Positions 2-15,665 of a stretch of 64,000 nt of DNA are shown here, piece by piece. The stretch lies in assembly GCA_965227515.1 (NCBI GenBank), contig CBDDFZ010000001.1:2624001-2688000 (forward strand). The letters run 5' to 3'. The stretch comes from Alphaproteobacteria bacterium (GTDB lineage: Bacteria; Pseudomonadota; Alphaproteobacteria; CALKHQ01). Position 1 is the stretch's first letter. Each line of letters opens with the position of its first letter. The translations under genes and the position numbers were made by a program. The notes below the pieces were generated by a model. It was not told the origin of the DNA. It ran no database searches and saw only the letters and a program-made list of their open reading frames with translations.

Positions 2-3000
2 GCCGCGCGCGGCGGCGCACAGGCGGCGGGTGCGGCGCTGCAGTACCAGCAGACCGCCTCTGGCCTCAACATCATCTCCGACACGGCCTTCGAGACCGAC
101 GGCTACACCCCGACCTCAGACGTCACCCTGTTCGACGCAGGCGCCACAGCCAATGCGTCGGCCACCGTCGACGGCGACGGTGGCGATGTCGTGGTCTGGT
201 CCGAGAACGACACCGCCTTCCATGGCGCCATCGCCGCGGCCGGCGGCGCCAATGGCGGCGATGGTGGCTTCGTTGAAATTTCTGGCGCACAGATTGTCGC
301 GCAAGGCAGCTTGGACGTGGGCGCCACAGCGGGCGATGCCGGCCGTGTGCTGATCGATCCAGTCACGCTGAATCTGTCCAGCGTCATTGGTGCGCTGAAC
401 AGCGTGCTCGGCGCAGGTGGCACCGGCGGCGCTTTCGATTTGGTGGCCGAAGAGACGATCAACGTCGATGTGGCCGTCGATACGAGCGGTTCGGCGGTTG
501 CCGGTAGCCTGAATTTCCTCGATGAGAACGCCGACGCCAATCTGACCGTCAATCTCGACAATGGCATCAATCTGGGCGCCAGTCAGACGATTTCCGGCGA
601 GGCGACGGTCGTCAATGTCAATACGACAGCCAATGGCTCGATCCAGGATGCGGTCGACATTGCCCTCAATGTCAACGGCGATCCGACGGCGACTGTGCCC
701 GTCGTGAATCTCGCGGTTGGGACATATAGTGGTGCTGGCAATGTCAATGTCATGGTCAACAAGGCCATGACGATCCAGGCGGCGGTGCTCGACGGCAATC
801 CGCTGCCGGCTACGGCTGTTGGCGCGCCGGTCCCATTTGTCCTGCAACAGGGCAATGGCATCGACGACATCGGCTTCATCGTCGCGCCGCCGCAGAACCA
901 GACGATCACCATCCAAGGTATCAATATCGATCGGATGGCCATCGGCATCACGACCGGTGGCATGCCAGCGTTGCCGCCGGGCGGTTCCGACGGGGAGTTG
1001 GCTGCGATAACGGTGCCGGAGGGGCCATATGGCCGGCTGGTCGTTAACAACAACGACTTCACCTTAATCGGCACCGCCGCGGTCATGGTCAGCGACCTGC
1101 AGCAGCTCGACATCTTCAACAATTTCATCTTCGGTTCGCAGAGTGCCGATTATGGCTTCCATGCCATGAACATCGGCCCAACCGGGCTCAACCCGATCGG
1201 CGAAGAGAATGATTTCGGGGACGACGACACCCACGAGATCAACCGCAACATCATGGCGGCCGGTGACGGCTTCATCAGTTTCTTCACCGACAGCGATAGC
1301 AACCCGTCCGAGTACAACTACAACGGCAACGGCCCGGAGATTCTGGCGCTTGGCTTCGACAAGCATGCCATCCACATGGTCAACGTGTCGGGCAAGATGG
1401 AGGTCAACGACAACCGCATCATTGGTGCTGCGGTCGGCATCCACGTGGATGGGGCCTTGATCCAGAATGGCACGACGAACTATCTGCTCGAGCAGCTCAA
1501 CATCGACCGCAACGTCATCTTGAACATCTATGAAGTGTTCGATGACGACCTGACCACGGTCGCCACGACCGAGCCCTATGAGACCACGTTCGGCGAGATC
1601 GGCATCGTCGCGCGCTATGCCGAGAACGTCTCGATCGACAACAATTTCATCTCCAACGACTTGGTGATTCCGGGTGGCGACAACGGTCTGGCGACCGCCG
1701 ACGCGGTGCCGAACGATGCCATCATCGGCGCCGACGACAATGGCTTGCCCGGACCGGTGTTCTCCGGCCCGTCGTTGCGCATCGGTATCTACGGCGAGGA
1801 GTTGATCGATCCGAACGGTGGCGACGATGTGGCTGGCGTCACAATCGACGGCAACACCATCGTCAAGGAAACGAACTTTGAGCTGGCTGGCGTCGAGGTG
1901 GCCTCGATCGAAGGCATCGGCAACCACGACGGCGGTGGCGGCTACCATGGCGGGCCGGAGACCTTCGGCATCTACCTCTACAACGGCCATGGCGACGTCT
2001 CGATCAGCCAAAACAGCCGTGCGTTCGCGACCGAGACGATCGAGGACCTGTTTATCAGCAGGGCCTCGCCCGAGGCCGATGGCATCAACAATTTCGATAT
2101 CGGCATCAACGTGTCGTTCGGCACAATCTCCGAGCCGCCGGTGATCCCGCTGATCGACAATCTGTGGGTCAACAACAACGACATCGTCAATGTCGGCCAC
2201 ACCGGCATTCGCATCTGCGATGGCCAGTTCGATTGCGGCGGCAGCCTGGACGATTGGCTGTATGACTACGAGCCGGGCTTGGGCTTCGGCGACATCTACA
2301 ATGTCACCGCCGACGGCAACGTGATCCTGAATTCCAACTTCGTCGGCCAATTCACAGGGTTCGAGTCATCCGGCGCAGAAATTGCGGCCGCGTTCTTCGC
2401 CGAGTTTGCCGGTCTCGAACGTGACATGCCGGTGAACGAGGAGTCGATGAGCTCCTCGCCCTTCCGCTATGGCATCCTGGTCAAGGGCACCGGCATGCTG
2501 GACGGCGAGGGCGGCGGTTCGTCGATCTCGGCCAGCAACAACCTGATCTTCAACCATCCCGGCCAGCAGGAATTCGACAATGTCTCGCTCGCCAGCTACG
2601 GCGGCGGCGGTCGCTGGGGCAACTCGACGGGCATCAAACTCTACGACACCATCGGCGAAAACGCGTTCCTGAACGGGAATGCCATCAACGAGGTGACGAA
2701 CGGTATCGTTATCGAGGCCGGTTTCGACTTCGGCAGCATGATGTTCCTGACCAATGGTTGGGACGACGAGAACTATGGTCCGGGCTACTACGGCCTGCTG
2801 AACGGTTGGGCGAACCAGAACTACGTCCGCGGCAACGATCACGCCATGTACCGTGGCACTGGCATCGACACGTTCAATGTCGAGAACATGTTCGTCCAGA
2901 ACAACAAGGTCGTGATCGAAGAGGTCGGCGGTTTCCCGACAATCACCAATCCGGGCGGCGTCCTGGGCTTCAACACCGGCATCAAGGTCGAGCAGACCGA

Positions 3001-6000
3001 CTGGACCAATATCGGCAACAACTTCCTGCACTACTCGAACCAGTCCATCGGCATCGGGCAGATTGGCGGTCCGCAGCTCGGCGATCCGGCCGGCTATAAG
3101 GGCATCCTCTCGCTCAACAACCGGTGGGCGCAGGTCGAAGACAACGATCTGATCGGCTACAATTTCGGCCTGGTCTTCTTCGACGAGTTCTTCGACATCC
3201 ATGATCCGTCGGAGCGGATGACCACGTACAACGCGTACAACAACGCGATCTGCTTCTACAATCCGCTGGCGTGCGACCAGTTCCTGCCGTTCTCGTTGTC
3301 GTCTCTGGCCAACCCGGAGCTCGCGACCTACAACGCGCTGACCTTTGGCGATCCGAACTTCCCGTTCACGGTCGACAGCGAGGACTTCGATCCCGAGCAC
3401 GGCTATTTCGGCGTCAGCTACGGGCTGGCGTATGAGGTCAATTTCGGCGACCTTGACGACCCGACCCAGGGTAACTTCGTGCAGGACTACGGTGTCGGCA
3501 TGGGCGGCCTGGGCGCGATGCACGCCAATTTGTACGGCAACTTCATCGACGATACCGAGGCCTATGGCATCATCCTGAAGCTGAACGACGTCAACAACGT
3601 CGTCGGCAATAACATCACCAGCGGCCTGCGTTTCGGCGAGCCGGTAACCTTCGATGTCGGCGCGGCGCTGGACGAGATCCTGGGCGGCGGCCGTCGTGGC
3701 GGCCATGATGGCGGCGGCGACCGGGCGTTCGGCGTCCAGGGCGTGATGGACAGCACCGGGCTCGGCGACTTCTCCTCGCTGTTCTTCGGCGGGGACACCC
3801 GCTTGTTCCTCTCCGAGCCGTCGGGCGTGGCGATCGACGTCGGCCTCTACGGCATCGGCTATGTGATCGACCTGCTTGAGGACGAGACCTTCACCATCGA
3901 CGGCGACCACACCGATCCGAAGGCCAACATCGCCTTCAACAAGGTGATCTGGGAAGGTCCGCTGGCGCCGGGCAACAGCGATGGCTTCACCGGGCTGGAG
4001 TTGTCGGAAATTTCCGGCATCGGCAATGGCGATGGCGGTTACGATGGCGATCCGTTCGACATCACCGTCTTCAACCCGTTCGAGGTTGGCGCGGTCATGG
4101 CGTCCGGCGGTCTTGGCCGGGTGCTGATCGAAGGCAACGACATCAACCTGAACTACTACGCCGACCATGGCATCCTGGTGAACTACAACCTGGTGCCGGA
4201 TGGGCTGGACGACCACTTCAAGGCGCTGCTCTCGGAGACGGAGAGCACCAGCGGGTTCACCTCTGACGTGGGCGGTCTTGGCGAATTCGGCTATCTGCTT
4301 GAGCTGATCCAGCTGCCGCCATTGGATGGCGGGTTCGACGATCCGGCGGTTCAGATCCTCGACAATGTGGTCGACTTCGACAACCCGATCACCATCGACT
4401 ACCCGCCGCTGTTCGGCGACGATGTCAAAGATGTCGTGGAGTTCGACGGGCTGACCGCGGGCTACGACGGCGACTATCGCAACCCGACTTATGTCGTGCG
4501 CGGCGCGCCGTCCGGCATTCGCGTCGACAACATCTGGCGCGGCGATGTGATCGTCGACAACAACGACGTCTTCATCAACCAGCCGCTACTCGGCGAATAC
4601 GACTACTTCTACGTGCCGGCCGGCTACGACGGCGACCAGTTCGTCGAGTACGAATTCGGCGCGTTCTCGGGCATCCATGTCACCAATGTCGGCATGGTCG
4701 ACCTGCGCGATCTCGCCCAGATCGTGATCGGCCTGCTGCCGGGTCTGTTCGGCGACAACGTCGGCATTCCGATCGAGTTGGCGAGCGGCGACTACGACGG
4801 CGGCTACGGCTTCCCGCTGCAGTTCCCGATCAGCCAGTCGAACCTGCGCATTTCGGACAACGATATCCGGGTGTTCAACGAGGTCTTCATCCGCGGGCGC
4901 ATGGACGAGTATCCCGAGGGGCTCACCGAGGTGTCGTTCGATAGGGAGTATTGGGGCGACTACTACCGCACCAACGGCCTGATCAACGGCATCGTGGTCG
5001 AGCACCTGACCGGTGACGTCGAGATCGGCGGACCGGGGGCTCGCGAGGGCAACGAGGTGCGCCTCGGAATCTTCGCGTACGAGATGACCGAGCCGACCGA
5101 GATCGAGGAGCGGCTCCTGGTCAATGGTGGCCGGTGGGGCGGATGGGACAACAAGCTGGGCGGTGTTGCGCTGTGGCTGCGCAACGTCGGCGGCGACGTC
5201 AACATCCACAACAACTACCTGACCGAGGCCGCCTACGGCATCGTGCTCGAGACGCTGAAAGGCGCCTATACCGAGCCGTGCATGGAAGCCTACATCTGCG
5301 AAGGCCCGCGGGACGACATCACCGATATCAGCAACTTCGGTGGCGGGTTCGGCGGTCTGTTCTCGTTCAAGGACTTCCCGCTGGCCGGCCCCACGGACGT
5401 CACGATCTTCGAGAACTTCCTCGAGGGCAACGTGCTGTTCGCGCTGAAGCACAACGTGCCGGCCGACTTCCTGCCCGACGGCACCATCAATGCCCAGGGC
5501 AACTGGTGGGGCACCATCGACGAGGCCGAGATCGCCGCCCAGATTTCCAGCGGCTACGGCGGCACCATGTCGCTGGGCAGCTACGATGGTGGCGGCAGCT
5601 ACTACGAGAAGGCCATGGTGGACTTCTCCAACTTCCTGCTGACCGGGGATGAGCTGACGATCTACATCCCGCGCGATCCGGACGAGATGGCGCCGATCGG
5701 GGCACGCGACAACATCATCGGCTTCCAGCCGGGCGATCTTGCCGATGCCGACGAGGCGCTTCTGGAGTTCATCGCCGTCGCGCTGAACCTGCAGCTTCCG
5801 GAACAGACCAATCCGGACCAGGTGCCGGGCGATCAGCAGTCGGGCCGTTCGCAGACGGACGCCACCAACGACTTCAACGAGCTGTATTCCAATCCGTTCG
5901 GGTTCCCGTTGGAGACCGACCTGGCGTCGCTGACGCCGGCGGCCGGTGCGGCGTGTTCGCTGGTGGCCTCGCCCGGTGGCGGCCTGTCGCTTGCGTGCGG

Positions 6001-6127
6001 CGCGGGTGCCGGGCTTACCGACGAGGGTTTGGAAGCGCTGCAGCCGGCAGCGGGCGACGGTGCGCCGCCGTCCAGCTTCCAGGACCTGCTGGACACCTAC
6101 TCCAACTTCTGGTCCGCGTTCCAATAG
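2..6127 (+). CDS. Giant filamentous-haemagglutinin-like (TpsA-type) / parallel beta-helix exoprotein, 5'-truncated by the window edge
   Basis: Frame is open from position 2 to TAG at 6125-6127 (>2000 aa). Contains the FHA-family motif GDGGDVVVWSENDTAFHGAIAAAGGANGGDGGFVEISG, many I/V-x-N-N-x-I beta-helix rungs and an INAQGNWWG motif; very D/G/N-rich. Confidence 0.8.
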   Translation, partial: AARGGAQAAGAALQYQQTASGLNIISDTAFETDGYTPTSDVTLFDAGATANASATVDGDGGDVVVWSENDTAFHGAIAAAGGANGGDGGFVEISGAQIVAQGSLDVGATAGDAGRVLIDPVTLNLSSVIGALNSVLGAGGTGGAFDLVAEETINVDVAVDTSGSAVAGSLNFLDENADANLTVNLDNGINLGASQTISGEATVVNVNTTANGSIQDAVDIALNVNGDPTATVPVVNLAVGTYSGAGNVNVMVNKAMTIQAAVLDGNPLPATAVGAPVPFVLQQGNGIDDIGFIVAPPQNQTITIQGINIDRMAIGITTGGMPALPPGGSDGELAAITVPEGPYGRLVVNNNDFTLIGTAAVMVSDLQQLDIFNNFIFGSQSADYGFHAMNIGPTGLNPIGEENDFGDDDTHEINRNIMAAGDGFISFFTDSDSNPSEYNYNGNGPEILALGFDKHAIHMVNVSGKMEVNDNRIIGAAVGIHVDGALIQNGTTNYLLEQLNIDRNVILNIYEVFDDDLTTVATTEPYETTFGEIGIVARYAENVSIDNNFISNDLVIPGGDNGLATADAVPNDAIIGADDNGLPGPVFSGPSLRIGIYGEELIDPNGGDDVAGVTIDGNTIVKETNFELAGVEVASIEGIGNHDGGGGYHGGPETFGIYLYNGHGDVSISQNSRAFATETIEDLFISRASPEADGINNFDIGINVSFGTISEPPVIPLIDNLWVNNNDIVNVGHTGIRICDGQFDCGGSLDDWLYDYEPGLGFGDIYNVTADGNVILNSNFVGQFTGFESSGAEIAAAFFAEFAGLERDMPVNEESMSSSPFRYGILVKGTGMLDGEGGGSSISASNNLIFNHPGQQEFDNVSLASYGGGGRWGNSTGIKLYDTIGENAFLNGNAINEVTNGIVIEAGFDFGSMMFLTNGWDDENYGPGYYGLLNGWANQNYVRGNDHAMYRGTGIDTFNVENMFVQNNKVVIEEVGGFPTITNPGGVLGFNTGIKVEQTDWTNIGNNFLHYSNQSIGIGQIGGPQLGDPAGYKGILSLNNRWAQVEDNDLIGYNFGLVFFDEFFDIHDPSERMTTYNAYNNAICFYNPLACDQFLPFSLSSLANPELATYNALTFGDPNFPFTVDSEDFDPEHGYFGVSYGLAYEVNFGDLDDPTQGNFVQDYGVGMGGLGAMHANLYGNFIDDTEAYGIILKLNDVNNVVGNNITSGLRFGEPVTFDVGAALDEILGGGRRGGHDGGGDRAFGVQGVMDSTGLGDFSSLFFGGDTRLFLSEPSGVAIDVGLYGIGYVIDLLEDETFTIDGDHTDPKANIAFNKVIWEGPLAPGNSDGFTGLELSEISGIGNGDGGYDGDPFDITVFNPFEVGAVMASGGLGRVLIEGNDINLNYYADHGILVNYNLVPDGLDDHFKALLSETESTSGFTSDVGGLGEFGYLLELIQLPPLDGGFDDPAVQILDNVVDFDNPITIDYPPLFGDDVKDVVEFDGLTAGYDGDYRNPTYVVRGAPSGIRVDNIWRGDVIVDNNDVFINQPLLGEYDYFYVPAGYDGDQFVEYEFGAFSGIHVTNVGMVDLRDLAQIVIGLLPGLFGDNVGIPIELASGDYDGGYGFPLQFPISQSNLRISDNDIRVFNEVFIRGRMDEYPEGLTEVSFDREYWGDYYRTNGLINGIVVEHLTGDVEIGGPGAREGNEVRLGIFAYEMTEPTEIEERLLVNGGRWGGWDNKLGGVALWLRNVGGDVNIHNNYLTEAAYGIVLETLKGAYTEPCMEAYICEGPRDDITDISNFGGGFGGLFSFKDFPLAGPTDVTIFENFLEGNVLFALKHNVPADFLPDGTINAQGNWWGTIDEAEIAAQISSGYGGTMSLGSYDGGGSYYEKAMVDFSNFLLTGDELTIYIPRDPDEMAPIGARDNIIGFQPGDLADADEALLEFIAVALNLQLPEQTNPDQVPGDQQSGRSQTDATNDFNELYSNPFGFPLETDLASLTPAAGAACSLVASPGGGLSLACGAGAGLTDEGLEALQPAAGDGAPPSSFQDLLDTYSNFWSAFQ

Positions 6128-7875: not shown

Positions 7876-7984
7876 GTAGCGTCCTCTCATCCAGGCCTGT
7901 GGTGGTATATTCTGGTAACAAGGGATACATAGGTGACTGGCCGTTTTGTGGAAGACGGCACTTTTTGGTAACGGAGGCACCTGC

Positions 7985-8380
7985 ATGAAACCGCCTGCCC
8001 ATGTGCCCAGCGGCTGCCGCCCCATCGTCGAGATCCTGTCGCGGATCGGCGACAAGTGGTCCCTGTTGGTGGTGCGCGAACTGGGCGACCGCACCATGCG
8101 GTTCAGCGAGCTGAAGCGCGCCATCGAGGGCATCTCGCAGAAGATGCTGACATCGACGTTACGTGGCCTGGAATACGATGGTCTGGTTGAGCGCACCGTG
8201 CATCCGACGGTTCCGCCACGGGTGGAGTACGCGCTGACCCCGCTCGGCCGTGACCTGGAAGGGCCGGTGTCGGCGCTGAGCGACTGGGCGCAGCGCCACC
8301 GCGGGGAGATCGAGGCCGCACGTGAACGCTTCAAGGCCGCCGAAAGCGATGACGCGGCCGGTGCTCACCGGGCGGCCTGA
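7985..8380 (+). CDS. HxlR-family winged-helix transcriptional regulator
   Basis: IGDKWSLLVV...RFSELKRAIEGISQKMLT..LR.LE.DGLV.R.V.PTVPPRVEY.LT; divergent from the FMN reductase; GGAGG RBS. Confidence 0.93.
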   Translation: MKPPAHVPSGCRPIVEILSRIGDKWSLLVVRELGDRTMRFSELKRAIEGISQKMLTSTLRGLEYDGLVERTVHPTVPPRVEYALTPLGRDLEGPVSALSDWAQRHRGEIEAARERFKAAESDDAAGAHRAA

Positions 8381-8546
8381 ACTTCGGGACCAACCGCGCC
8401 GGGCCCGCGGGCTGCTGGCGGCCCCGCCACCGCCCTTGCATACATAAGCATCAACCATAGGTTGCCGGCAGTGAGGCGCGCCGATGGCTGCGCATGCGAT
8501 GATATGCATGCCCGCCTGCGGCGTCGCGTGATCGAAAATGCTTGAG

Positions 8547-8561
8547 GTTCGTTTAATGTTC
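8547..8561 (+). promoter_or_regulatory. Alphaproteobacterial LexA (SOS) box
   Basis: GTTC-GTTTAAT-GTTC, an exact GTTC-N7-GTTC match in an AT-rich intergenic region upstream of the DUF6456-like gene. Confidence 0.7.
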
Positions 8562-8567
8562 CCTTAA
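8553..8567. promoter_or_regulatory. CtrA full binding site
   Basis: TTAA-TGTTCCC-TTAA, an exact TTAA-N7-TTAA match overlapping the LexA box. Confidence 0.65.
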
Positions 8568-8629
8568 TAGTCCAATATTGGTGAATGGGAATCACAACCA
8601 TAAAGTGTAGTCAGCCGAGGAGAACGCCG

Positions 8630-9121
8630 ATGCGGGCAGCCAGAAAGAGCGACAGTGTCACACTCACGGCGGCACGGCACCAGCACGACACCATCGATGT
8701 GGTGCCGACCGAGGCGGCCGGCGTAACGGCGCATCGTGTGCGCACGCCGTTCGCCCTCGACCGCTATCACGCGCGCGGCGAACTGGCGCCGGGCGAACCG
8801 GTGGAAAACAACCGGCGTTATGACGCCGGGGAGCGATTGCGGGCCGACTGGACCAGGGCGGGGCTGGAGCCCGCAGTCGTGGCGCGCTATCGGGACCTGG
8901 TCTCCGGCGGCGTTTCCGGGGGTGGGGGGCTTCGACACGACGTCCACGCACACCGGATGGACGCGCACCGGGCGTGGAAAAAGGCGATCCAGAAGGTGGG
9001 ACCGATCGCCAGCAACGAGGTGATCGAGGCGTGCTGCCTGGGCAATGCCGTGCGCGGCAAGGTGCGGCTGGAGATTCTGCGCCGCGGCCTGGCGGTTCTG
9101 GCTGACCACTACGGCCTCTAG
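8630..9121 (+). CDS. DUF6456-like protein (GafA C-terminal / GafZ-like putative transcriptional activator or antiterminator)
   Basis: Motifs AGERLRADW..AGL.P, A+++VGP, ACC and C-terminal LRRGLAVLADHYGL match my recollection of the DUF6456 consensus. GAGGAG RBS at 8617-8622 before ATG 8630. Confidence 0.7.
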   Translation: MRAARKSDSVTLTAARHQHDTIDVVPTEAAGVTAHRVRTPFALDRYHARGELAPGEPVENNRRYDAGERLRADWTRAGLEPAVVARYRDLVSGGVSGGGGLRHDVHAHRMDAHRAWKKAIQKVGPIASNEVIEACCLGNAVRGKVRLEILRRGLAVLADHYGL

Positions 9122-9181
9122 GGCACACGCAAAACGAGTGCATCGGCCTGGAAGTTCAAAATTATGTTGATCTTTGTGGGT

Positions 9182-9196
9182 GTTTTTGTTATGTTC
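9182..9196 (+). promoter_or_regulatory. LexA-like box (1 mismatch) upstream of terminase genes
   Basis: GTTT-TTGTTAT-GTTC in an AT-rich spacer. Confidence 0.5.
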
Positions 9197-9347
9197 TGTT
9201 TCAGGAGATGCATGCAACGGGGTTGATCGGCAGCGAGACCGATTGACCGGGTTGCGGGCCAGGTCGGGCGGCCAATGAGCTCGTGTCTCCCACCCATGCT
9301 CAAAGATTCCATCCAATCCACCGAGCGATTGCGAGGCTTGCACAGTC

Positions 9348-9689
9348 ATGACCATGCACAAATCAGGCGCCGTGATCGACGGCGGGACGACGGCTCCAAT
9401 GAAGCGGATCAACGGCGGCGGTGCGCCGGCCTGCGCGGGCCTGGTGTTCGTGGCCGAGGACGGCACCGTCAGCCGTGCGCAGCTTGCCCAGATGCTGCTG
9501 CAGGACCGCGAGCTTGCGTACGAGGAGGGCACACCGGCTGCGGCCGTCGCCGCCACCGTGGCGCTGTATCGGATATGCGGCCCGGACACGGCCGACCCGG
9601 ATGCCGTGGTGTCCGAGCTGGAACGCCTCAGCGACGACGACCTGGCACAACGGGTGCGCGACCTCGAAGAACAACTGAAGGACGTGTGA
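9348..9689 (+). CDS. Putative small terminase subunit (short, no evident HTH)
   Basis: Directly upstream of and overlapping (GTGA) terL. Helical DRELAYEEG..AAAVAA.VAL and LSDDDL segments resemble TerS oligomerisation/C-terminal regions; 113 aa. Confidence 0.55.
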   Translation: MTMHKSGAVIDGGTTAPMKRINGGGAPACAGLVFVAEDGTVSRAQLAQMLLQDRELAYEEGTPAAAVAATVALYRICGPDTADPDAVVSELERLSDDDLAQRVRDLEEQLKDV

Positions 9690-10504
9690 GCGTGCCGGCC
9701 CGCAACGGTGCAAACGGTGCAAACGGAGCCAACGGTGCGCGCGGCAATGGCGCGGCGAAGGGCGGGGGCGTTGTTGCAACCGTCGTCACACCCAAGGCCG
9801 CGTCCCACCGCGACCTGCGCGAGCAGCTCGCCGCCGTCTTGGCGGAGCAGGTGCGCCGCAAGGCCCGCAATCGCATGGCGCACTACCGGCCCTATCCCAG
9901 GCAGCTCGAATTTCACGCCGCCGGCGCGCGGCACCGCGAGCGTTTGTTCATGGCCGGCAACCAGCTCGGCAAGACCGTGGCCGGCGCGTTCGAGGTCGCC
10001 TTCCACCTGACCGGCCGCTACCCGGACTGGTGGCCGGGCCGGCGTTTCGCGCGGCCGATCCGCGCCTGGGCGGCCGGCGTGACGGCGGAGTCCACGCGCG
10101 ACAACCCGCAACGCCTGCTGGTCGGCGCGCCGCAGCGCAAGGAGGAATGGGGCACAGGCGCCGTTCCCGGCGACAGCCTGGCCGGCACCATTACCGCGCG
10201 CAGCCTGTCCGGCGCGCTCGACAGCATCGTCGTCGCCCACGCGGCCGGGGGCAATTCGGTGCTCGCCTTCAAATCCTATGAGAAGGGGCGGGAGAAGTGG
10301 CAGGGCGAGACCCTGGATCTGGTCTGGTACGACGAGGAGCCGCCTTTGCCGATCTATATCGAGGGCCTGACCCGCACCAACGCCACCGGCGGCATGACCA
10401 TGGTGACGTTCACCCCGCTGCTCGGCATGTCGGAGGTGGTGCGCATGTTCCTGGAGGACGCGTTGGACGACACCGACCCTGCCCCGGCGGGGGCCGCGGC
10501 CTGA
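9686..10504 (+). CDS. Large terminase, N-terminal ATPase half (P22 gp2-like)
   Basis: Q-motif YPRQLEFH, Walker A AGNQLGKT, RYPDWW.GRRF, Walker B VWYDEEP, motif III TFTP. GTG start at 9686 overlaps the upstream TGA. Confidence 0.88.
   Translation: MSVPARNGANGANGANGARGNGAAKGGGVVATVVTPKAASHRDLREQLAAVLAEQVRRKARNRMAHYRPYPRQLEFHAAGARHRERLFMAGNQLGKTVAGAFEVAFHLTGRYPDWWPGRRFARPIRAWAAGVTAESTRDNPQRLLVGAPQRKEEWGTGAVPGDSLAGTITARSLSGALDSIVVAHAAGGNSVLAFKSYEKGREKWQGETLDLVWYDEEPPLPIYIEGLTRTNATGGMTMVTFTPLLGMSEVVRMFLEDALDDTDPAPAGAAA
9704..9739 (+). repeat. 9-bp tandem repeat x4 (AACGGTGCA-like) encoding (NGA)4 at the TerL N-terminus
   Basis: aacggtgca aacggtgca aacggagcc aacggtgcg. Confidence 0.8.
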
Positions 10505-10505
10505 A

Positions 10506-11249
10506 ATGTCGCGCCACGTCACCCGCATGACCATCGACGACGTCACCCACATCGACGACGAGCAGAAGGCCAGGATCGTCGACAGCTACCCGCCGCACGA
10601 GCGCGAGGCGCGATTGCGCGGCATGCCGCAACTCGGTTCTGGGCGCGTGTTCCCGGTCGGCGAGGCGGACATCGCCTGCACCGCGATGGCGGCGCCGGAC
10701 CATTGGTGCCACATCGGCGGCATCGACTTCGGCTGGGACCATCCGACCGCGGCTGTCAAGCTGCTGTGGGACCGCGACGGCGACATTGTCTATGTCGCCC
10801 AGAGCTACCGCGTGCGCGAGGCGACGCCGGTGATCCATGCCGCGGCCCTGCGCCCCTGGGGGGGCGACATGCCGTGGTCGTGGCCGCAGGACGGCTACCA
10901 GCACGACAAGCAGTCCGGCGTCTCGATCGCCGCCGCCTACCGGGCCCAGGGCCTGAAAATGCTGGACAGCCATGCTCAGTTCGAGGACGGCAATTCCGGC
11001 GTCGAGGCCGGGCTGATGCAGATGCTGGAGCGGATGCAGACCGGCCGCCTGAAGGTTTTCGAGCACCTGACGGACTGGTTCGACGAGTTCCGGCTCTACC
11101 ACCGCAAGGACGGCCGTGTGGTGATGGAGCGCGACGACCTGATGGCCGCGACCCGCTACGCGCTGATGTCGCTGCGCTACAGCCGCGCTGTGCGCCGCCC
11201 GGCCCGCGCGAGGCGCGCGCTGACCGAGTACGCGATCTTCGGTGATTGA
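10506..11249 (+). CDS. Large terminase, C-terminal (lid + RNase H-like nuclease) half
   Basis: MTIDD..H.....YPPHEREAR.RG.P.LGSGRVF, GIDFGWDHPTA, WPQDG, DDLMAATRYA; acidic catalytic residues present. Confidence 0.88.
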   Translation: MSRHVTRMTIDDVTHIDDEQKARIVDSYPPHEREARLRGMPQLGSGRVFPVGEADIACTAMAAPDHWCHIGGIDFGWDHPTAAVKLLWDRDGDIVYVAQSYRVREATPVIHAAALRPWGGDMPWSWPQDGYQHDKQSGVSIAAAYRAQGLKMLDSHAQFEDGNSGVEAGLMQMLERMQTGRLKVFEHLTDWFDEFRLYHRKDGRVVMERDDLMAATRYALMSLRYSRAVRRPARARRALTEYAIFGD

Positions 11250-11276
11250 AGGTGTGTTGCTATCGCGGAACCGGCA

Positions 11277-11346
11277 CCAGCCCTCTCCCCCACCCGACCG
11301 CCCACGTGAGTATCCTGCTGGGCGGTCGGGTGGGGGAGAGGGCTGG
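11277..11346. repeat. Perfect 28-bp-stem palindrome (REP-like), copy 1
   Basis: CCAGCCCTCTCCCCCACCCGACCGCCCA, 14-nt loop, exact reverse complement; near-identical copy at 32425-32495. Confidence 0.9.
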
Positions 11347-11395
11347 CGCAGACTGATCGCGCGATGCTCCACCGGAGCATCGATTGCGAAAAAGT

Positions 11396-11410
11396 GAACA
11401 TATCATGATC
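11396..11410 (+). promoter_or_regulatory. LexA-like box (1 mismatch) upstream of the head genes
   Basis: GAAC-ATATCAT-GATC, immediately upstream of the AAGGAG RBS of the 11422 ORF. Confidence 0.45.
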
Positions 11411-11421
11411 AAACAAGGAGA

Positions 11422-11637
11422 ATGACCATGGGTGGATTGTTGTCACCGCCACAGAAGGCCTCCCCACCGCCGCTGCCGGCGCCGGTGCCCCGCGACGATG
11501 CCGAGGTGCAGCGCGTCGCCGCCGAGGAACGCCGCCGCCGCCGTGCCCAGTCCGGCCGCAGCAGCACCATCAAGACCTCCGGCCAGGGCGTCACCGAACA
11601 GGCACCGGTCGGCCACAAGCGCCTGCTTGGCGAATAG
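11422..11637 (+). CDS. Small podovirus pre-portal virion protein (T7 gp7.3-like position)
   Basis: MGGL.SPP Pro-rich start, RRR..GR.STI.T.G.G, C-terminal KRLLGE: the typical small gene preceding T7/BPP-1-type portals. Strong RBS. Confidence 0.65.
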   Translation: MTMGGLLSPPQKASPPPLPAPVPRDDAEVQRVAAEERRRRRAQSGRSSTIKTSGQGVTEQAPVGHKRLLGE

Positions 11638-11677
11638 GTGGCCGTTGCCGCTATCGCCATGCAACGAGGATGACGAG

Positions 11678-13342
11678 ATGAGAGACACCGCACGGGAATT
11701 GCGGGCACGGTTCGAGGCGTTGGCTGGCCGGCGCGGGCCGTGGGAGGCGCATTGGCAGGAGATCGCCGAGCGCGTGCTGCCGCGCCAGGCCGGCTTCACC
11801 GGCCGCACCACGCCGGGCGCCAAGCGCAACGAGAAGATCTTCGACAGCACGGCCCCGCTGGCGCTGGAGCGTTTCGCGGCGGCGATGGAGTCGATGCTGA
11901 CGCCGCGAGGCCAGCGCTGGCATCATTTGCGGGTCGCGGACGAGGAGCTTGGCCGGCGCGACGACGTGCGCGCCTGGCTGGAGGCGGTGGAGCGCAGGCT
12001 GTTCGCCAGCCGCTATGCGCCGCGCGCCAACTACGCCTCGCAGCAGCACGAGATCTACATGTCGCTGGGGGCGTTCGGCACCGGGGCCATGTTCCTGGGC
12101 GACGACCCGGTGGCGGGGCCGACCTACCGCGCCATCCACCTGGGCGAGCTTTACGTCGACGAGGACGCGCACGGCCGCATCGACACCGTGTTCCGCAAAT
12201 TCGAGCTGACCGCCCGCCAGGCGCGCCAGTTCTTCGGCGCCGACCGGCTGCCGGACACGATCCTGCGCGCGGGCGAGGATGCGGGCGACCGCAAGTTCGC
12301 CTTCCTGCACGCCGTGTTCCCGCGCACCGCGCGCAATCCGGCGAAGCTGGACAGCCGCAACATGTGCTTCGCCTCGTGGTACCTGGCGCTCGACGGCAAC
12401 GAGCTGATCGGCGAGGGCGGGTACCGCACCTTCCCCTACATGATCAGCCGCTACGTCACCGCGCCGGGCGAGGTTTATGGCCGCTCGCCGGCGATGGCGG
12501 TGCTGCCCGACATCAAGATGCTGAACGAGGCGGCGCGCACCATCATCCGTGCCGCCCACCGGCAGGTCGACCCGCCTATTCTGGTCCACGACGACGGCGT
12601 GCTCGGGCCGCTGAACCTGCAGCCAAACGCGGTCAACGTCGGTGGGCTGTCACCGACCGGCGAGCCATTGGCAAAGCCTTTTAACAGCGGAGGGAAGATC
12701 GACATCGGTCAGGAACTGCTGGAGGCGTGGCGGGGCTCGATCAAGGACGCATTCCTGGTCAGCCTGTTCCAGGTGCTGACCGACCATCCGAACATGACCG
12801 CCACCGAGGCGTTGGTGCGGGTGCAGGAGAAGGGCGCGTTGATCGCGCCCGCCGTCGGCCGCCAGCACTCCGAGGCGCTGGGGCCGATGATCGCGCGCGA
12901 GATCGACATCCTGACCCATCGCCGTGCTCTGCCGCCGGCGCCGCCGGTGTTGGCCGAGGCGCGGGCCGACCTCGAAATCCGCTACGACAGCCCGATGGCC
13001 CGCGCCCAGCGTGCTCAGGACGTCAGCGGCATCGCGCGGCTGGTGGAAACAGTCGCGCCGCTGTTGCGCATGCATCCTTCGGTGGTCGACCTGTTCGATG
13101 CCGACGCCATCGTGCGGCTGGCCGGCGAGGCCTATGGCGTGCCGCATGGCGCGCTGCGCGCCGAGGCCGACGTCGAGGCGCATCGCGCGCGGGCCGCCGA
13201 GGAAGGCACAGAGCCTGCACCGGGCGACGATGTGCTGGGCCAGCTTGCCGGGACTCTCGGCGCTCTTGCCCCGACCATGGCGGACGATCCCACGTCGGTG
13301 CCCCTTGAGACCGGGGTTGTCGCGCCGGGGGCGACGCCATGA
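11678..13342 (+). CDS. Portal / head-to-tail connector protein (T7/BPP-1-like podovirus type)
   Basis: WEAHWQEIAE..LP, IFDSTA..A, LGAFGTG, GEVYGRSPAM..LPDIKMLN, MTATE...R..EK, I.Y.SP.ARAQ motifs. Confidence 0.9.
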   Translation: MRDTARELRARFEALAGRRGPWEAHWQEIAERVLPRQAGFTGRTTPGAKRNEKIFDSTAPLALERFAAAMESMLTPRGQRWHHLRVADEELGRRDDVRAWLEAVERRLFASRYAPRANYASQQHEIYMSLGAFGTGAMFLGDDPVAGPTYRAIHLGELYVDEDAHGRIDTVFRKFELTARQARQFFGADRLPDTILRAGEDAGDRKFAFLHAVFPRTARNPAKLDSRNMCFASWYLALDGNELIGEGGYRTFPYMISRYVTAPGEVYGRSPAMAVLPDIKMLNEAARTIIRAAHRQVDPPILVHDDGVLGPLNLQPNAVNVGGLSPTGEPLAKPFNSGGKIDIGQELLEAWRGSIKDAFLVSLFQVLTDHPNMTATEALVRVQEKGALIAPAVGRQHSEALGPMIAREIDILTHRRALPPAPPVLAEARADLEIRYDSPMARAQRAQDVSGIARLVETVAPLLRMHPSVVDLFDADAIVRLAGEAYGVPHGALRAEADVEAHRARAAEEGTEPAPGDDVLGQLAGTLGALAPTMADDPTSVPLETGVVAPGATP

Positions 13343-13632
13343 TGTGGCTGACCCGCCGTGGCCTGCGCAAGCGCCAGGAGGTCTACCGCCGCGTGTTCGA
13401 GACCCCGGCCGGCCAGGAAGTGCTGTCCGACCTCGCCACCTTCTGCCGCGCCTTCACCAGCACATTCGTGCGCGGCGACCCCTATTCCACCGCGCTCGGC
13501 GAGGGCCGGCGCGAAGTGTTCAACCGCATCGCCGGGCTGATCGCCCTGGATGAGGACGGCTACGCCCGGCTGATGGCGCAGCACCTGCTGGAGCCGGATC
13601 AGGCCGGCCACCGGCTCGCCGAAAAGGAGTGA
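13339..13632 (+). CDS. Bbp19-like small phage protein
   Basis: Y.RVF.TP.G.EVL.DL..FC....STF..GDP..TA..EGRR.V pattern; ATGA overlap with the portal stop. Confidence 0.75.
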   Translation: MMWLTRRGLRKRQEVYRRVFETPAGQEVLSDLATFCRAFTSTFVRGDPYSTALGEGRREVFNRIAGLIALDEDGYARLMAQHLLEPDQAGHRLAEKE

Positions 13633-13635
13633 GAC

Positions 13636-14508
13636 ATGCAAACCGAAACCATGACCCAAACGACCGCCGCCTCGCCCGGACCAAACGCGGCGAGCGCGTT
13701 GCCGGCCTGGGCCGCCAGCCTGCCGGACGATATCCGCGCCCTGGTCGCCAAGAAGAAGTGGCCGGATATCGCGGCTGCCCTGCGGTCATACCAGCATGTC
13801 GAGCGCCGGCTCGGCGAACTGAAGCGCAAGGCGCTGGTGGAGGTGCCGGCGGAGGATGCCGATCCGGCGGCGTGGTCGGCGCTGTTCGACAAGCTCGGCC
13901 GGCCGGCCCGGCCCGATGACTACGATCTTGCCGGCATGGAGGCCGGTGAGGCGGAAGAAACGCCTGCGATGACCGCGTTTCGCCAACTCGCCCACGACAT
14001 TGGACTCAGCGCGACCCAGGTGAGCGCGCTCAGCGGTTGGTGGCAGGGCTTGGTCGAGGACTGCCGCGCCTTGCACGAGGACGATGCGGATGCGGATGCT
14101 GCGGCCGCGGCCGTATCCGTCGAGGAGGTGCTGCGCCAGCACTGGGGCGCCGACTATGAGCGCCGCCGCGCCATGGCCGAGCGCGCCTACATGCAGTTCG
14201 CCGACCCGCGCGTCGGCATCGGCGACCGTGGGCTCGCCGCGCTGGAGGAACTGAGCGACGCCGCCGCGGTGATGGACATGCTCGCCGACATCGGCCAGGC
14301 GATGAGCGAGGACGTGCGGGTTGGCGGCGAGGGTACTGTCGACTTCGGCCTGTCTCAGGACGACGCGCGCAGCCAGCTTAGTCAGCTCAAGCGCGACAAG
14401 GCGTTCATGGACGCCTATCTCGACAAGCGCCACCAGGACCACGACCGCGCCGTACAGCGTGCGCGGGCGCTCAACCGCATCGCCGCCGGCGTCGACCCGC
14501 ACGGCTGA
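13636..14508 (+). CDS. Putative capsid scaffolding/assembly protein
   Basis: W..SLP.D, SY..+E..LG, LGRP..PDDY, AH..GLS..Q, L...WG.DY, G..M.ED, D..H..H..AV: pattern of podoviral scaffold genes that normally precede the major capsid gene. Confidence 0.7.
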
Positions 14509-14588
14509 CGCTTTCGCGGCCCGCATTGAACCCTCCCGCCGCCAGTTGCGACCCCATGAGTGGAGCAACTGGAGGGTGGGAGGCGATC

Positions 14589-15665
14589 ATGAGCTTTGCG
14601 GCGAAGCTGGATCCTAAATTTTCGACCAAGGTGCTGGAGTCCGTGTTCCCAGACCCAATTATTGGCGGGTTCGGGGCGCAGGAAATCCACGGCACCGAGA
14701 ACAAGGACATCATCTGGGGCGATGATGGGCCGACCGCGGCGGGCCCGTTCTGGACCATTCGCGGCAATCACGCCGACATCCTGTACGGCCATGGCGGCGA
14801 CGACACCATGTATGGCGAGCACGGCGCCGACACCCTGTTTGGCGGCGAGGGCGCCGACCATCTCGATGGCGGCACCGGAAACGATTTTCTGGATGGCGGT
14901 GCCGGCAGCGACAATCTGTTCGGTGGTGCCGGCAACGACCTGATATTCGGCGGCGACGGCATCGACAACCTGCATGGCGAGGCTGGCGACGACAGCCTGT
15001 TCGGCGGGGACGACTTCGATTGGATCAACGGCGGCGCCGGCGATGACTGGATCGATGGCGGCGACGGCAACGACTATCTGATGGGCGAGGCCGCCGGCGA
15101 CCTGGACCACGGCGACGACATCATCTACGGCGGCCTGGGCGACGACGAACTGCGCGGGCGCAGCGGCAACGACAGCCTGTTCGGCGGTGTCGGCAACGAC
15201 GTGCTGAAGGGCGAGTTCGGCGAGGACTATCTGTCCGGCGGCGATGGCGACGACATCCTGTACGGCGGCTATGACGGGGCCGACATCGCACCGACCGGCA
15301 GCTACACCGACGGCTGGGAGATCGCGGTCAAGCTGGACGACGGCAACGATGTGCTGGATGGCGGGGCCGGCAACGACCTGCTGATCGGCGGCGGCGGCGC
15401 CAACATCTTGACCGGCGGCAGTGGCGCCGACGGGTTCGCCCTCGACAACTACATCTCCAACCTGTCGGCGGTGCCGGACTACTTCCAGCCCAACATCATC
15501 ACCGACTACAGTTGGTCAGGCGACGGCGACAAGATCGAAGGCCACCACGCGGTCAGCGTCGGCGGCAACACCACCCACGTCTATGCCGACGACGACCAGT
15601 TGCTGTTCATCCTGACCGACCACGACCTCGCGACCGATGGCATCCACCTGGTCTGGTTCGGGTAG
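14589..15665 (+). CDS. RTX-type Ca2+-binding (GGXGXD nonapeptide) secreted protein
   Basis: More than 15 L.GG.G.D repeats, no N-terminal signal peptide, GGGAGG RBS. Confidence 0.88.

Follow-up and report, generated by a model that had tools for sequence, protein, structure and literature searches.

The locus described here raises the question of what a compact set of phage packaging and head genes is doing among the ordinary genes of an alphaproteobacterial chromosome, and whether it belongs to a phage, to the remains of a phage or to a system akin to the gene transfer agents (GTAs). It occupies positions 8547-14508 of a stretch of 64,000 nucleotides (nt), referred to below as the window, on the 4.07-Mb contig (C1) of a two-contig assembly of 5.52 Mb (G000, the source genome), which also contains a second replicon (C2). 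We propose, with a rough probability of 0.55, that this is the regulator, packaging and portal locus of a domesticated, SOS-controlled, multi-locus system related to the BPP-1/BcepC6B-like podoviruses, that it has been inherited vertically since before the genera of the host order split, and that the system is GTA-like. Particle production, random packaging and transfer, the properties that define a GTA, are considered here as candidate functions predicted from sequence comparisons.

An earlier note on this DNA had described a co-oriented cluster comprising a DUF6456 gene, a short TerS (small terminase subunit), a P22-type TerL (large terminase subunit) split into two genes, TerL-N and TerL-C, a small gene, a portal gene, a Bbp19-like gene and a scaffold gene. 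The Pfam and PHROG scans by which gene families were called, and a match of TerL-C to a solved P22 domain that is taken up below, bear out this content, and all the listed genes are present on the plus strand (Table 1). The reading frames are intact, and the G+C content (GC) of the locus is 0.66-0.70, like that of the surrounding genome, with third-position values (GC3) that are host-like too. As the note had also observed, the locus is bordered by ordinary genes, those of an HxlR regulator and an RTX-repeat protein, and genes for an FMN reductase and an aldo-keto reductase are found among the flanks as well. The scans detected no integrase, replication, capsid, tail or lysis gene within 8547-14508.

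The missing part of the particle has been identified by a tblastn search of the whole of G000 with the structural proteins of the closest phage record, MW202898, whose portal is 46% identical. This second locus (C1:2,952,061-2,966,278) is encoded on the same strand as the window locus, 314 kb farther downstream, and carries a LexA box before its nozzle gene; it is the unlinked podoviral capsid and tail locus with the same boxes that the earlier note had envisaged. Its capsid gene (C1:2,952,061-2,952,936; Phage_capsid_2) shares 49% identity with the capsid of MW202898 over the full length, and tail tube A, the nozzle and a phrog_4177 gene are encoded at C1:2,956,137-2,959,251. The families represented are phrog_394 (tail tube A), phrog_376/Phage_nozzle, a gp14-like internal protein, a T7 fibre N-terminus, a Laminin_G_3 protein, an Rz-like (spanin-like) protein and an amidase with a peptidoglycan-binding domain. 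A head protein of 160 amino acids (aa) and small internal proteins are also encoded, and a script search has added a holin-like open reading frame (ORF) of 52 aa with two transmembrane helices and a lipobox protein. Its neighbours are a LacI gene at one end and genes for an IS481 transposase and a chemoreceptor at the other. With its Head-tail_con portal, Phage_capsid_2 capsid, tube, nozzle and P22-type TerL, the head lineage is podoviral and unrelated to that of RcGTA, as had been claimed.

A further piece, a gene of 96 aa without a Pfam family, stands alone on the minus strand of the second replicon (C2:543,079-543,369; 8080-8370 of L026) and corresponds to a small homologous gene in the structural modules of MW202898 and L041, the latter one of several loci from alphaproteobacterial metagenome-assembled genomes (MAGs; L040-L043 and L058) considered below. 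Every gene of the element is single copy in G000 except TerL. Since the two loci on C1 are 314 kb apart, one head cannot hold the whole element. The family scans revealed no integrase, replication or repressor gene beside any of its loci, and the element cannot replicate or integrate. The generic definition of a GTA or viriform (PMC9662315) calls for caudoviricete-derived structural genes in a cellular genome with no replication or integration means of their own, and this is what is found here.

The order in which GTDB places G000 comprises only four species (G000-G003) in two genera; G001 belongs to the sister genus, which it shares with G003. Pieces of the element are carried by all four, the DUF6456 and nozzle genes having been found in four of four species, capsid and TerL-C in three and the portal in two. 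In G001 the genes follow the same order, from DUF6456 through TerS, TerL-N, TerL-C, the small gene, the portal and Bbp19 to the scaffold, with a portal 66-67% identical to that of G000, as compared with at most 46% to any cultured phage. The scaffold gene of G001 is then followed by host genes (ABC transporter, arabinofuranosidase, regulators), whose G000 orthologues (73-85% identity) lie on the other replicon or elsewhere, and the capsid and tail locus is situated 18 kb beyond the scaffold on the same strand. The same break between scaffold and capsid in both genomes implies that it predates the two genera.

Substitution rates were estimated by the method of Nei and Gojobori (NG86). Between G000 and G001 the synonymous rate (dS) is 0.34-0.98, mostly about 0.5, in 10 element genes and 0.44-0.66 in four host neighbours; NG86 underestimates dS at a GC3 near 0.9, the comparison of element with host being relative and independent of the absolute values. 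The residence of the element in these genomes is therefore as old as the divergence of the genomes themselves. The ratio of non-synonymous to synonymous rates (dN/dS) is 0.32-0.65 for the element between the genera. Between G001 and G003, a comparison within one genus that falls after the split architecture arose, it is 0.22-0.59 in 10 genes and 0.344 when pooled over 2352 codons (bootstrap 0.30-0.39). No stop codon or frameshift is present in any recovered copy of the element genes. A close relative (X2), known only as contigs of a public run (0.32 of sampled words), covers the whole window locus; all of its coding indels or indel groups sum to multiples of three, and among the 40 differences listed of 289, 27 of the 37 coding ones are synonymous and 10 are not. 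G000 has, between TerL-C and its portal module, a palindrome of a REP-like family with 264 blastn matches across the genome, and X2 is without a 139-bp segment bearing it (joint 11256 to 11396). A host REP element inside the locus is a further sign of long residence. The shared break and TerL split, the host-like dS and the distribution over four species point to vertical inheritance with the host genome, and the ratios point to purifying selection on the particle genes after the loss of autonomy. Both the conserved synteny and the ratios below one had been named in the earlier note as checks on its proposal.

The direct repeat GTTC-N7-GTTC, which we take to be the alphaproteobacterial LexA motif, stands upstream of lexA in G000, and its use in this genome is supported by that position. 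Among the 68 perfect matches in G000 only 10 have an AT-rich spacer; one of these precedes lexA and three are located 34-38 nt before element genes, namely the DUF6456 gene (8547), the nozzle gene and the 96-aa gene on C2 (37 nt upstream). When one mismatch is allowed, 11 boxes are found in the 20.65 kb of the two loci as against 0.49 expected from 132 genome-wide, an enrichment of 22-fold. Perfect boxes precede DUF6456 and TerS in G001, DUF6456 in G003 and TerS in G002, so that DUF6456 and/or TerS carry LexA boxes in all four species, and one of the boxes in G001 abuts a good -35/-10 pair. Production may thus be under host LexA/SOS control. Of the two host boxes that had been reported in the promoters, that for LexA is thus enriched and conserved; CtrA control has been set aside, the single TTAA-N7-TTAA match overlapping the LexA box in G000 and being absent in G001. 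A consensus promoter scan of 8300-14700 returned 0 sigma-70 sites, and terminator-like sites in the same interval are no commoner than in shuffles. In G001 the leader from the LexA-boxed promoter to TerS (L023/L022 junction, reverse complement 14,290-14,640) contains tandem arrays with an 8-nt unit repeated about 10 times and a unit of about 15 nt. In Caulobacter, according to PMC11150451, tandem repeats form a terminator that is overridden by GafZ.

The same source describes GafZ of Caulobacter as an antiterminator for a GTA with dispersed genes (PMC11150451), and GafA homologues are annotated as DUF6456 (PMC9638019). Each of G000-G003 encodes only one DUF6456 gene, the four products being 57-61% identical, with a dN/dS of 0.40 between the genera and 0.33 within the genus; among 14 control genomes the same family search matches Caulobacter. 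The domain (residues 67-157) is the sole Pfam match of the 178-aa protein. A GafA-type N-terminal DnaA-like domain was not detected by Pfam, and no search aimed at a GafY-like gene was made. Comparison with the PDB sequences gave no match (best E 0.81), and tblastn against 50,697 phage records gave none at E 1e-3. An AlphaFold model based on the four orthologues was too poor to be used (mean pLDDT 41.8).

The two halves of TerL have been analysed with respect to the nature of the split. TerL-C matches the solved P22 nuclease domain 4DKW (E 2.6e-50), and the label P22-type is therefore correct; TerL-N gave no match to PDB sequences at 0.01. The Walker A, Walker B and nuclease aspartate motifs are conserved in the halves, and in TerL-N we take GNQLGKT to be Walker A and DEE Walker B, together with a TFTP motif. 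The likely GTG start of TerL-N overlaps the TerS stop codon, the start being uncertain within 9686-9770. Eight TerL-N homologues terminate at the same point, just past 'VVR.FL'. The start of TerL-C is the same in G001, G003, L041, L043 and L075, and a conserved Met-Ser-Arg-His-Val-Thr opens every TerL-C. The spacing is variable. In G000 the ATG of TerL-C follows the TerL-N stop codon by 1 nt, in G001 a spacer of 115 nt intervenes, in G003 the gap is 3.2 kb, and in L041 stop and start overlap (ATGA). In L040, L042 and L043 TerL-C lies 11-16 kb from TerL-N, after the scaffold gene; in L058 it also follows the scaffold gene, and TerL-N was not found in that locus. The dN/dS of TerL-N is 0.37 between G000 and G001 and 0.24 between G001 and G003. 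A programmed frameshift or a sequencing error as the cause of the split is ruled out by the conserved ATG of TerL-C and the variable spacing of the halves. The split TerL is a real two-gene form, cut at one fixed point.

The gap in G003 (1133-4358 of L081, contig C176) is coding DNA without assignment, and the ORFs tried gave no PADLOC match. In L043 the element genes form GC-rich islands (0.66-0.70) within DNA of 0.52-0.60 GC, and the intervening DNA, not assignable to a host or a phage class, encodes a cadherin-domain protein, an FkbM methyltransferase and a PBECR1 nuclease.

A HMMER search of a protein library with TerL-N yielded 3349 matches at E 1e-3. Among the 12 inspected of 150 listed, some are complete short proteins ending at the same point (P0001, P0020 and P0029), and others, of about 490 aa, are full-length, the two parts being joined by a linker of 5-8 residues. 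The nearest TerL proteins of cultured phages are those of Xfas53 (61.6%), which is encoded by one gene of 470 aa, and of Rhizobium phages (60.7%). Several relatives of about 780-860 aa (P0033, P0060, P0070, P0074 and others) match the ATPase core in two separated stretches and look like intein-bearing terminases. A model of the TerL-N/TerL-C complex obtained a score of 0.70, the best control scoring 0.00; the mark applied is reached by 58 of 80 solved complexes and by 2 of 110 mismatched pairs. At least 55% of contacts are common to the runs, the partner pLDDT being at least 78, and residues 2-16 of TerL-C are modelled as a strand that lies against the ATPase core at residues 42-68 and 216-231. 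With TerL-N and TerL-C being parts of one known fold, a passing score may come from resemblance to solved terminases and is no proof of binding. A TerL made from two genes, the halves of which are sometimes kilobases apart, constitutes a natural experiment on the construction of the packaging motor.

The exception to single-copy occurrence noted above is due to TerL paralogues elsewhere in G000. Two further split copies, 58.6% identical to the TerL of the window, are encoded at C1:1,756,178-1,757,667 (10112-11685 of L075) and C1:3,334,327-3,335,816. Each lies in a repeat of 3.4 kb (95.7% identity between the two) with a TerS of the Terminase_2 type, and the DNA around them has a GC of 0.56-0.65 and contains an AAA_25 gene, an unassigned 848-aa gene and an Asp-protease-like gene. 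These loci may be other mobile elements or satellites.

The sequence of events that these components suggest can be outlined as follows. DNA damage would lead to the cleavage of LexA, and the DUF6456 gene, the TerS-TerL operon and the boxed tail genes would be derepressed. The DUF6456 protein, like GafZ and GafA, would then switch on or read through the dispersed structural operons. TerL-N and TerL-C may reassemble into one P22-type headful terminase, with which the TerS of G000, its recognition domain lost, would fill podovirus heads with host DNA, and the lysis genes would release the particles. The TerS of RcGTA binds DNA, as far as is known, only non-specifically.

A number of observations weigh against the proposed domesticated system, and several of them favour the alternative of a non-functional prophage remnant, split by rearrangement in the common ancestor and decaying slowly, in which the conservation is incidental. 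An insert of 2.7 kb with low GC lies between the head and tail genes of the second locus and an IS481 copy stands beside it. The TerS of G000 can be aligned with no more than residues 143-231 of its G001 counterpart (260 aa), which has a weak N-terminal Terminase_2 match, and likewise only with the C-terminal parts of the TerS proteins of L041 and L075; the truncation is specific to G000 and could be decay. The short TerS that had been described is present in G000 and is not a shared trait. To these are added the 3.2 kb inserted between the TerL halves of G003, a dN/dS above that of the host neighbours (0.18-0.33 between G000 and G001) and the genes not found in two of the species, namely the portal in G002 and G003 and capsid and TerL-C in G002. 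The assemblies of G002 and G003 are fragmented (350 and 340 contigs), the element pieces being on short contigs that end inside it, and gene gaps there are uninformative rather than reassuring. On the other side, none of about 20 genes has acquired a stop codon or frameshift in G000, G001 or the pieces of G003, the insertions stand between genes and never inside them, the indels of X2 are in-frame only and the regulatory boxes are conserved in four of four species. A decaying remnant is improbable because of these intact frames at a dS of about 0.4-0.5 and the pooled ratio measured after the split.

With respect to the low-GC insert, it is located at 3500-6100 of L027 (C1:2,953,500-2,956,100) between the 160-aa head gene and tail tube A and has a GC of 44-46%. 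Its ORFs (246, 176 and 344 aa) gave no match in Pfam, PHROG or PADLOC. The same site holds 1.8 kb in G001 and 0.3 kb in G003.

The whole set spans about 39 kb in G001, where self-packaging may occur. This extent, the contiguity of the whole module in the MAG locus L041 and the fact that the closest relatives of each gene are phage genes would suit part of an active temperate phage, or a phage satellite, still moving between cells. The separation of the loci by 314 kb on the 4.07-Mb contig of G000 and the lack of replication, integration and repressor genes in the scans are the reasons for which we set this alternative aside as very improbable indeed; the host genes between the loci of G001, the equality of element and host dS, and a GC and GC3 that are host-like, unlike those of the lower-GC elements carrying the TerL paralogues, also stand against it.

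The remaining objections concern the function of a domesticated particle and its regulation. The large internal proteins of the BcepC6B type have no counterpart, about 2 kb with three small ORFs, conserved in G001-G003 and similarly spaced in L041, being found instead, and the delivery of DNA may be defective or proceed in another way. The background of the LexA enrichment is the whole genome and not AT-rich intergenic DNA alone. The clusters of look-alikes of the DUF6456 protein in the ESM Atlas are mostly viral and PHROGs gives a weak match to it, so the regulator may be a phage heritage rather than a mark of a GTA. Of the GTA-type regulation inferred earlier, the DUF6456 domain is present; specificity for GTAs does not follow from a Pfam domain whose look-alikes are mostly viral.

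The missing ejection proteins are also what would be expected if the system, though domesticated and SOS-induced, did not transfer genes, and were a particle for killing, like PBSX, or for altruistic lysis, in which host DNA is packaged without being delivered, for example for DNA release or for killing competitors. All the evidence of domestication fits this alternative equally, and SOS-induced bacteriocin-like elements are typically under direct LexA control. Purifying selection acts, however, on terminase, portal, scaffold and TerS, which would not be needed for killing alone, and the fibre and nozzle have been retained. We regard a particle of this kind as unlikely, less so than the remnant, and retain the domesticated GTA-like system as the preferred reading. 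Of the independently domesticated GTA-like system that the earlier note had put forward, the domestication is supported by the conservation, the selection, the second locus and the LexA boxes; the CtrA box and a regulator diagnostic of GTAs are not.

The features of the window locus and its flanks are collected in Table 1. The scaffold protein was named from the place of the phrog_3742 gene in complete phages, where it follows the Bbp19-like gene and precedes that of the capsid.

Table 1. Features of the window locus and its immediate flanks (positions are those of the window)
Feature	Position	Strand	Evidence or remarks
HxlR regulator (flank)	7946-8380		
LexA box, perfect alphaproteobacterial type, GTTCGTTTAATGTTC	8547-8561	+	38 nt before DUF6456 start codon; overlapped by TTAA-N7-TTAA match
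DUF6456 protein, 178 aa, putative GafZ-like activator/antiterminator	8585-9121	+	PF20057, 46.1 bits (cut-off 26.3)
LexA-like box before TerS, 1 mismatch	9182-9196	+	Perfect boxes at the equivalent place in G001 and G002
Short TerS, 113 aa, without N-terminal Terminase_2-type DNA-binding part	9348-9689	+	No family match of its own
TerL-N, ATPase core	9686-10504	+	Terminase_6N positions 1-152
TerL-C, last ATPase strand and lid, P22-type nuclease domain	10506-11249	+	Terminase_6N positions 163-210 and Terminase_6C; own ATG, 'MSRHVTRMTI'
Host REP-like palindrome, perfect 28-bp stem, between TerL-C and portal module	11278-11346	no strand	Fold z-score -10
LexA-like box, 1 mismatch	11396-11410	+	26 nt before small gene
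Small conserved pre-portal gene, 71 aa	11422-11637	+	54% identity in G001; also in L042, L043 and L060
T7/BPP-1-type portal	11678-13342	+	Head-tail_con, E 5e-129
Bbp19-like small protein (Phage_Bbp19)	13339-13632	+	PF25181, E 1.1e-18
Scaffold protein, last gene of window locus	13636-14508	+	phrog_3742; role named from position
RTX-repeat protein (flank)	14526-15665		

Elsewhere in the window, a plus-strand open frame of 2041 aa (2-6127) runs off the start of the window; it has no Pfam match, and its GC of 0.59-0.63 is below that of the rest of the window. Two ORFs of 709 and 713 aa gave no PADLOC match, and the former has no match in Pfam or PHROG either.

Related arrangements have been identified in other Alphaproteobacteria. 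Loci of the Kiloniellaceae (L035-L039 and L053; Denitrobaculum, Pelagibius and others) encode a portal (54-58% identity) together with Bbp19 and scaffold, and neither TerL nor capsid is encoded within 10 kb of them. A homologue of the capsid (36-37% identity) is located 17-22 kb downstream on the same strand, and the neighbourhood is colinear across genera. They may represent a sister scattered element. As the genes that intervene in L043 could be assigned neither to a host nor to a phage, the loci of the Kiloniellaceae and the MAGs are kept as leads only.

According to PMC9662315, only three GTA lineages have a known genetic basis. Neither a podovirus-derived GTA nor a naturally split TerL is described in the literature searched, the coverage of which is incomplete and includes few subscription journals. 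None of the three lineages is, to our knowledge, short-tailed. It is tempting, though we would put it at clearly less than an even chance, to see in the present system a fourth or fifth independent origin of GTAs, the first from a short-tailed T7/BPP-1-like phage, fired directly by the SOS response by way of a DUF6456 regulator of the GafZ kind and provided with a two-piece terminase, which together with the Kiloniellaceae and MAG sets would make up a widespread and overlooked class of viriforms. If a set derived from a podovirus, spread over several loci and wired to the SOS response is indeed kept under selection throughout an order, the domestication of phage particles would be commoner and more varied in origin than thought, the DUF6456 type of regulator may serve as a general handle for such systems, and gene transfer or altruistic lysis would be linked directly to DNA damage.

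Among known phages, BcepC6B and BPP-1 resemble the element most in organisation. The order TerS, TerL, small gene, portal, Bbp-like gene, scaffold, capsid, small head genes, tail A, tail B, gp13/gp14-like genes, fibre and lysis genes is shared, and the portal is 40% identical. BcepC6B differs in having a contiguous genome of 42 kb with integrase, repressor, polymerase and primase, none of which is found here, where the module is cut after the scaffold, and in having three large internal proteins (gp15-17, about 7 kb) between gp14 and the fibre, which are absent here. The TerL of the element is of another type (P22/Xfas53-like). PBSX is SOS-induced and packages host DNA, and is a contiguous myovirus-like prophage of Firmicutes. 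Dd1 of Desulfovibrio is a GTA of podovirus-like shape, for which we know of no identified genes.

BaGTA of Bartonella is similarly a domesticated multi-locus alphaproteobacterial GTA, the loci of which are tied together by a dedicated antiterminator; it differs in being chimeric, from two other phages, with a module for run-off replication, and in having a Q-like regulator, BrrG, in place of DUF6456 (bioRxiv 10.1101/2024.11.20.624540).

Membership in the Rhodogtaviriformidae is defined by an HK97-type head-tail cluster homologous to that of RcGTA, and every structural family of the present element differs from it. RcGTA and the Caulobacter GTA (CcGTA) have an HK97 siphovirus-like head and tail, whereas a T7/BPP-1-type portal, Phage_capsid_2 and a podoviral tube and nozzle are encoded here, with a P22-type TerL in two pieces; control here is predicted to be directly by LexA/SOS rather than by CtrA or quorum sensing. 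As compared with GafA and GafY, no GafA N-terminal part or GafY-like part is seen, no aimed GafY search having been made. The element is nevertheless like RcGTA and CcGTA in consisting of phage structural genes without replication or integration functions, in its dispersed loci, vertical inheritance, purifying selection and predicted host regulators, in the loss of the DNA-binding part of TerS in G000, and in having a putative dedicated regulator of the DUF6456 type (PMC9638019; PMC11150451).

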